Source of the DNA: Escherichia coli
GTDB taxonomy: Bacteria > Pseudomonadota > Gammaproteobacteria > Enterobacterales > Enterobacteriaceae
Length of the DNA stretch: 64,000 nucleotides
Strand: one strand, 5' to 3'
Assembly (NCBI RefSeq): GCF_003334815.1
Contig: NZ_QOWO01000006.1
Under the pieces are notes generated by a model, which saw only the letters and a list, made by a program, of their open reading frames with translations, was not told where the DNA came from and ran no database searches. Made by a program: the position numbers and the translations under genes. The first letter of the stretch is position 1; each line of letters starts with the position of its first letter. Below, piece after piece: positions 57,910 through 58,015 of this stretch.

Positions 57910-58015
57910 TCACCCTGTGTGACGTCGATTCGGGCGTCACGCTCTCTCCTTTTTCATTTTACCTTCTGCGGAGGGTAGGGGGAGCTTTTACCTGAAATAC
58001 GCCACGGAGGCGGGT

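Follow-up and report, generated by a model that had tools for sequence, protein, structure and literature searches.

A conserved pair of RNA hairpins in the eutM-eutN spacer of the Escherichia coli ethanolamine utilisation operon

Intra-operon hairpins and the eutM-eutN spacer

The intra-operon attenuators of rplL-rpoB and rpsU-dnaG (T1) in Escherichia coli have been measured and are strong, with effects of tens of percent. REP/BIME elements, such as those of malE-malF and hisJ-hisQ, stabilise the upstream mRNA against 3' exonucleases and can also attenuate transcription. In papB-papA and other fimbrial operons, and in pufBA of Rhodobacter, stem-loops of the major subunit confer segmental mRNA stability. 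In the eut loci of Firmicutes, the EutV/ANTAR sites take the form of paired hexaloop hairpins, overlapping a strong terminator, that depend on the EutV/EutW two-component system; the eut operon of E. coli is regulated by EutR. How one operon yields shell proteins at a ratio of approximately 100:1 is an open practical question for both the understanding and the engineering of microcompartments.

The stretch of DNA analysed here (the window; 64,000 nt) carries the E. coli eut operon on its plus strand. Gene names were taken from the RefSeq annotation of identical E. coli DNA, in which the gene order is eutS-P-Q-T-D(pta)-M-N-E-J-G-H-A-B-C-L, and a 761-nt query across the eutM-eutN junction matched 5410 records at an identity of at least 95%. 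The preliminary description of this DNA had placed 106 nt between eutM and eutN, in agreement with the ends of the two genes (Table 1), and had called almost all of the eut genes tightly packed. The latter is true of most of the operon, in which the intergenic gaps range from -26 to +38 nt; however, eutG-eutH forms a second and larger exception, with a gap of 216 nt that is filled by REP/BIME sequence. This gap (61743-61958) contains two tandem copies of a REP/BIME unit of approximately 100 nt, amounting to four REP hairpins, whereas the corresponding gap of strain E2865 is 116 nt long and contains a single copy.

The eutM-eutN spacer is single-copy (median, one place per genome) and was found in 5408 of 5426 complete E. 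coli genomes. No annotation covered it in any sampled RefSeq E. coli record, an Rfam 15 scan of positions 57000-59000 gave nothing overlapping it even at E ≤ 10, and our literature search found no published description of an element in this spacer. Our analysis showed that it contains two adjoining hairpins, H1 and H2 (Table 1), which constitute a real, conserved and unannotated element outside any Rfam family.

Like rplL-rpoB and rpsU-dnaG T1, the H1-H2 pair joins a hairpin to a U-rich signal inside an operon, where a high-demand gene precedes lower-demand genes; unlike them, its terminator scores are borderline, and the downstream eut mRNA is about as abundant as that of eutM under induction. 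The pair resembles REP/BIME elements in consisting of stable GC-rich hairpins just past the stop codon of the gene with the higher expression, and in Salmonella, Klebsiella and several Citrobacter species this gap is actually filled by REP elements, as is the eutG-eutH gap of the window. However, H1 and H2 are single-copy, show no sequence likeness to REP, are conserved beyond a generic hairpin and are followed by a U tract after H2 that is absent from REP. Membership of the REP/BIME family was rejected because the spacer occurs as a single copy in the 5408 genomes and lacks the REP consensus GCCGGATG.../...CATCCGGC; matches to the REP core numbered none in the E. coli-type spacers versus two to four in those of Salmonella, Klebsiella and C. 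koseri.

As in the fimbrial and puf operons, where the mRNA segment of the major subunit comes to exceed that of the minor ones, a hairpin follows the gene of the most abundant structural subunit; in contrast to those systems, the genes after that of the minor subunit EutN encode enzymes required in substantial amounts. A terminator-like hairpin between ethanolamine utilisation genes also recalls the EutV/ANTAR terminators. A substrate of this type was rejected, since the H1 loop is unconserved, with lengths of 4-20 nt, H2 has a tetraloop, and the operon contains neither eutV nor eutW.

Table 1. Features of the eutM-eutN junction (window positions)
Feature	Position	Strand	Details
eutM CDS, major hexameric shell protein	57616..57909	+	ORF list and RefSeq annotation; stop codon TAA 57907-57909
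eutM-eutN intercistronic spacer	57910..58015	+	106 nt; no annotated feature
Hairpin H1	57917..57942	+	10-bp stem 57917-57926/57933-57942; loop GAUUCG 57927-57932
G-free pyrimidine-rich tract CUCUCUCCUUUUUCAUUUUACCUUCU	57943..57968	+	the "T-rich tail" of the preliminary description; comprises the outer 5' strand of H2 (57944-57950), a 9-nt bulge (57951-57959) and the inner 5' arm of H2 (57960-57966)
Hairpin H2, adjoining H1	57944..57984	+	inner and outer helix
H2 inner helix	57960-57966/57971-57977	+	UACCUUC-UGCG-GAGGGUA; loop UGCG 57967-57970
H2 outer helix	57944-57950/57978-57984	+	CUCUCCU pairs with GGGGGAG across the 9-nt bulge
Conserved single-stranded segment CUUUUACCUGAAAUA	57985..57999	+	UUUU 57986-57989; ACCUGAA 57990-57996
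eutN translation initiation region	58000..58018	+	SD GGAGG 58006-58010, 5-nt spacer, AUG 58016; predicted partial occlusion by local pairing
eutN CDS, pentameric vertex protein	58016..58303	+	ORF list and RefSeq annotation

Structure and conservation of the hairpin pair

H1 begins 7 nt past the eutM stop codon, and its stem arms, GUGUGACGUC and GGCGUCACGC, are separated by a loop of 6 nt. The preliminary description had reported a stem-loop with a T-rich tail at this place, composed of GTGACG (57919-57924), ten nucleotides (57925-57934) and CGTCAC (57935-57940), followed by GCTCTCTCCTTTTTCATTTT (57941-57960); each of these motifs lies exactly there. The stem-loop is indeed stable, but its stem comprises 10 bp rather than 6. 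The tail stands only in part: U-rich sequence is present past H1, but it starts with UCUCUCC, part of it serves as the 5' strand of H2, and no U run abuts H1. The U5 run begins 8 nt past the H1 stem, after seven intervening bases, and is partly used in H2. Directly 3' of the base of H2 lies UUUU and then ACCUGAAAUA, in a segment that was predicted to be unpaired in every folding context.

Folding predicted a stable structure for both hairpins. The folding energies were -16.2 kcal/mol for H1 (z = -4.4) and -18.7 kcal/mol for H2 (z = -3.0), and none of 200 shuffles was as stable in either case. Positions 57910-57990 folded at -34.7 kcal/mol on the plus strand (z = -4.3; 0 of 200 shuffles as stable) and at -18.1 kcal/mol on the minus strand (z = -1.0), where folding is weak because five G.U pairs turn into A.C mismatches. 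It is thus the sense RNA that forms the structure, and neither the DNA nor an antisense RNA. Taken alone, the motif TGACG-N(4-30)-CGTCA is unremarkable, with three occurrences in the window versus 2.1 expected, and a simple terminator scan, which flagged 57917-57942, showed no enrichment (five sites versus 4.3 expected). What goes beyond chance is the folding energy together with conservation: 24 orthologous spacers, spread over six genera, have this hairpin in the same position.

Other kinds of element were considered for the same sequence and rejected. A DNA palindrome or dimeric protein site (e.g., a CRP-like TGTGA...TCACA) does not fit the spacing of the arms, which ranges over 4-20 nt among species, or the G.U pairs, which form only in the sense RNA. 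A small ORF would have as its sole start the GTG at 57919, which has no SD, and the changes in loop length break the frame in other species. The G-free CU tract, at just 26 nt and partly paired, is too short and too structured for a Rho rut site. A consensus scan of both strands gave no internal or antisense promoter in the spacer.

To compare the spacer across species, EutN was scanned in one genome per species, which gave 48 loci; eutM lay directly upstream in 43, and in all 43 the spacer was between 52 and 211 nt long. Three contigs of 269-466 nt, ascribed to Gemelliphila, a Prolixibacteraceae bacterium and Caballeronia (L019, L033 and L044), encode EutN proteins 87-100% identical to that of E. 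coli and are almost certainly enterobacterial contamination of those assemblies. Sixteen distinct spacers could be aligned from end to end (alignment A1); they come from Escherichia, the C. freundii group, two other Citrobacter and K. spallanzanii. Standard pairs accounted for 93% of the pair cells in A1 versus 50-59% in slid-partner controls. The inner helix of H2 stays paired through double changes from AU to GC and from CG to UA, and its outer helix is nearly invariant, as is the single-stranded segment 57985-57999; CTCTCTCC and TTTT are invariant in all of A1.

H1 extends beyond these species to Buttiauxella, Entomohabitans and Yokenella. It always starts 5-9 nt past the stop codon and has loops of 4-20 nt, and four of its pairs have changed on both sides, including GC to AU in Yokenella and CG, UA and UG at one position. 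The identity of the spacer between E. coli and Citrobacter is 80-86%, compared with 45-65% at the 4-fold degenerate sites of eutD, eutM, eutN and eutE (binomial p, 1e-7 to 1e-14), and the H1 loop and the first 7 nt of the spacer drift at 14-57% identity. The generic marks of a conserved cis-acting RNA were thus all found, namely, compensatory pairing, free loops, above-neutral conservation and strand specificity, and this pattern is the signature of a functional RNA structure under purifying selection. The CU tract, the G tract and UUUUACCUGAAAUA are conserved beyond the structure, which points to a role more specific than that of a generic exonuclease barrier.

The motif ACCUGAA is located 25-26 nt 5' of the eutN AUG in Escherichia, Citrobacter, K. 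spallanzanii, Buttiauxella and Entomohabitans, and it does not occur in the REP-type spacers. In E. coli strain 90-1 (L051, 2580-3858), an IS911 lies in the spacer right past H2 (query position 79) and parts eutM from eutN; this insertion is a natural disruption mutant of the element.

Several sister lineages contain REP-type hairpins (GCCGGATAAG.../...CATCCGGC) in place of H1 and H2: Salmonella (diarizonae and arizonae), K. pneumoniae, K. oxytoca, K. michiganensis, K. grimontii, C. koseri, C. amalonaticus, C. sedlakii, Pseudocitrobacter and Pluralibacter. As judged by eye in three spacers (L027, L029 and L006), the REP hairpins start approximately 6-12 nt past the eutM stop codon. Since both types of species are found within Citrobacter and within Klebsiella, the replacement occurred more than once. 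The spacers of Pseudomonas and Rhodocyclaceae contain other GC-rich structured sequence, and 25 of the 26 spacers tested folded better than their dinucleotide shuffles (median z, approximately -2.5). Common to all lineages is a stable hairpin just past eutM, and not the U tract. The REP and other stable hairpins found in the gap elsewhere indicate that a generic stable hairpin is an acceptable substitute; however, the presence of REP does not prove equal function, as REP elements settle in any permissive gap.

A fused eutMN ORF of 690 bp has been annotated in S. Typhi (PMC3548604). The Salmonella spacers L027 and L035 are 111-112 nt long, and 690 nt is the sum of 291, 111 and 288 nt; the fusion therefore fits the loss of the eutM stop codon with in-frame read-through of a 111-nt REP-type spacer.

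Termination and transcript levels at the eutM-eutN junction

All sites with a hairpin and a tail on the plus strand of the window were scored with our own script in the style of d'Aubenton-Carafa and TransTermHP, which gives approximate values. Sites resembling true terminators scored d = 15-47. H1 and H2 are both stable GC-rich hairpins, as in an intrinsic terminator, but their combined hairpin and tail scores were borderline, at +0.6 and -0.6, respectively, and ranked approximately 40-45 among 1600 candidate sites. An intrinsic terminator has a U tract of approximately 7-9 nt flush with the base of its stem. H1 is followed by UCUCUCCUUUUU, with four U in the first 8 nt and a tail score of 3.15, and H2 by UUUUACCU, with a tail score of 4.19; the tails of real terminators in the window scored 3.7-5.8.

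In other species, the d of H1 was -10 to -33 in Citrobacter, -20 in Yokenella and -5 to +21 in Buttiauxella (+20.6 in B. noackiae), and that of H2 ranged from -3 to +7 with an invariant UUUU. Given the low scores of H1 in Citrobacter and in Yokenella, which has no U tract, terminator quality is not the conserved property, and strong termination is not what selection maintains. U-rich sequence nevertheless directly follows a hairpin in five of the six genera with H1 (in Buttiauxella, UUUCUUUAA directly after the H1 stem), and a weak, leaky terminator thus stays a candidate. Accordingly, the partial terminator of the preliminary description may legitimately be read as a leaky terminator, in view of a stable, conserved sense-strand hairpin with U-rich sequence, but one with a weak score (d near zero versus 15-47).

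In strain W3110 grown on ethanolamine with B12, the iBAQ values (EutQ = 100) were 10 for EutD, 96 for EutM, 1 for EutN, 27 for EutE and 7 for EutG, and EutN was the rarest Eut shell protein (PMC11334477). W3110 is a K-12 strain, and the spacer in the K-12 background (DHB4) is identical to that of the window. In AIEC LF82, the RPKM values in minimal medium and in bile salts, respectively, were 108 and 357 for eutD, 55 and 177 for eutM, 5 and 62 for eutN, 14 and 149 for eutE, 13 and 147 for eutJ, 35 and 168 for eutG, and 106 and 514 for eutH; expression was low in these samples, and whether the library was stranded is not given (PMC6379400). The level of eutN was 3-11-fold below that of eutM overall. 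The step at the junction was 4-11-fold in uninduced cells, and in induced cells the dip was confined to eutN, with the later genes back at approximately 85% of eutM. Since eutE, eutJ and eutG (147-168) were close to eutM (177) under induction, any attenuation is small. In the same data, the RPKM of eutH was threefold that of eutG, which suggests a promoter or stability effect across the eutG-eutH gap.

An RNA-seq study of EHEC in bovine content gives fold changes alone, and these were uniform across the eutM-eutN junction and hence uninformative. The Term-seq data of Adams 2021 (PMC7815308) for MG1655 in LB and M63 glucose list only an antisense 3' end in eutM; sense-strand eut 3' ends are absent because the operon is off in those media. 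The antisense end (supplementary file 1 of PMC7815308; position 2572217 of MG1655, plus strand) corresponds to approximately 57839 on the minus strand of the window, in the 3' part of eutM, and an antisense transcript therefore crosses the spacer or starts near it. Our search of the minus strand found no consensus promoter for this transcript near the spacer.

A terminator lowers all of the genes downstream of it, so it produces neither a dip specific to eutN nor a EutN level 27-fold below that of EutE. With EutM, EutN and EutE at approximately 96:1:27 and induced eutE mRNA close to that of eutM, termination cannot set the level of EutN. The proposal that a terminator in the spacer sets the EutN:EutM stoichiometry therefore fails, leaving at most a modest step, which is more evident without induction. 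The H1-H2 pair alone cannot explain why EutN is approximately 100-fold rarer than EutM. EutE, made from the same stretch of RNA past the spacer, reaches 27 times the level of EutN; most of the approximately 100:1 ratio of EutM to EutN must therefore arise at translation or via protein stability.

We tentatively propose, at slightly short of an even chance, that H1-H2 is a 3' boundary module of the eutM-proximal mRNA that combines leaky termination with protection of 3' ends. A minority of polymerases would terminate at the weak hairpin-plus-U signals of H1 and H2; alternatively, an endonuclease may create 3' ends by cutting the conserved single-stranded stretch immediately past H2. The hairpins would shield such ends from 3'-to-5' exonucleases, so that the eutM segment of the mRNA would accumulate somewhat above the distal genes, as REP elements achieve in other operons. 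The EutM:EutN ratio of approximately 100:1 would be fixed mainly by translation, the eutN ribosome binding site having a strong SD but lying inside structured RNA. Termination or processing at H1-H2, the direction and size of its effect, and the translational component are what we infer here. If the spacer tunes segmental mRNA stability, read-through or coupling, it would represent a compact natural part for setting expression ratios, and the tuning would also explain the mis-assembly of heterologous eut constructs without intergenic regions. If the spacer does nothing measurable, its conservation needs explaining.

Alternative roles of the spacer

The hairpin might instead act on translation. 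Located 5-12 nt past the stop codon of eutM, the most heavily translated gene, it would block the sliding or re-initiation of post-termination ribosomes on eutN and, together with the structured eutN initiation region, uncouple eutN translation from that of eutM, leaving transcription unaffected; we regard this as unlikely. The spacer lies at the sole junction of the operon that needs a drop of approximately 100-fold in protein, and the differences in mRNA are far below those in protein. A stable hairpin, whether H1, REP or another, is present in all lineages, 5-12 nt past the stop codon where measured, and a block of this kind needs no U tract, in keeping with the REP-type and Yokenella spacers. 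Despite a strong SD (duplex, -9.5 kcal/mol), the predicted opening energy of the eutN initiation region is 12.7-13.4 kcal/mol, among the highest in the operon; that of eutM is 5.4-6.7 kcal/mol, the lowest except for eutH (3.6-4.2 kcal/mol).

However, the predicted occlusion of the eutN SD varies with the folding context, with P(unpaired) between 0.07 and 0.56, and insulation, a role that we only infer, leaves the invariant UUUU, the CU and G tracts and H2 unexplained. A predicted (MFE) long-range helix, in which the first nucleotides after the eutM stop codon pair with the eutN SD and AUG, was rejected: its register varies by clade, and it is not conserved, as no part of the spacer is less conserved than its 5' partner (14-57% identity). 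We consider it unlikely that H1-H2 is no terminator at all but a translational insulator, or a regulatory platform, dedicated to setting EutM:EutN (facet:vertex) from one transcript, with REP as a convergent solution. In that case, placing a structured spacer behind the major shell gene would be a design principle shared generally by microcompartment operons.

It is quite unlikely that H1 and the T-rich tail form a partial Rho-independent terminator whose efficiency sets the low EutN:EutM ratio. The arrangement does contain a hairpin with downstream U-rich sequence that a simple scan flags, and both the lower RPKM of eutN in LF82 and the rarity of EutN among the Eut shell proteins are in the expected direction. 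These points are outweighed by the UCUCUCC at the head of the tail, the displaced U5 run that is partly taken up by H2, the d of H1 near zero in E. coli and negative in Citrobacter and Yokenella, and the levels of EutE and of the induced eutE, eutJ and eutG mRNAs given above.

A platform for a trans-acting regulator (a CsrA- or ProQ-like protein or an sRNA) that tunes eutN or the distal eut genes in response to a signal is decidedly improbable. It would account for the GGAG at the border of the loop and stem of H2, which is invariant while the remaining stem covaries, for a second GGA 36 nt downstream in the eutN SD, for the near-invariant single-stranded segment of 15 nt, and for the invariance of the CU and G tracts and UUUUACCUGAAAUA at the sequence level. 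On the other hand, no Rfam family matched and no regulator came to light, several lineages have swapped the module for unrelated REP elements and retained the operon, which speaks against specific recognition, and the GGA motifs coincide with the kind of SD-like sequence that this place would contain anyway.

A neutral relic, such as a decayed repeat tolerated between eutM and eutN, would agree with a gap permissive enough to have received REP elements and one IS911 and with the chance frequency of the bare 5-bp inverted repeat, but it is very improbable indeed and already largely refuted by the spacer identity of 80-86% versus approximately 50% at synonymous sites, the fixed stems and drifting loops, the compensatory changes and the strand-specific G.U pairs.

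The start of eutM upstream of the spacer also differs between annotations. An in-frame ATG lies 42 nt upstream of the eutM start (57574-57615) and opens an ORF of 111 aa that overlaps the end of eutD. RefSeq places the start at 57616, giving 97 aa with an AGAGGA SD, whereas the LF82 table lists eutM as 335 bp; the annotation of the eutM start therefore differs between genomes.
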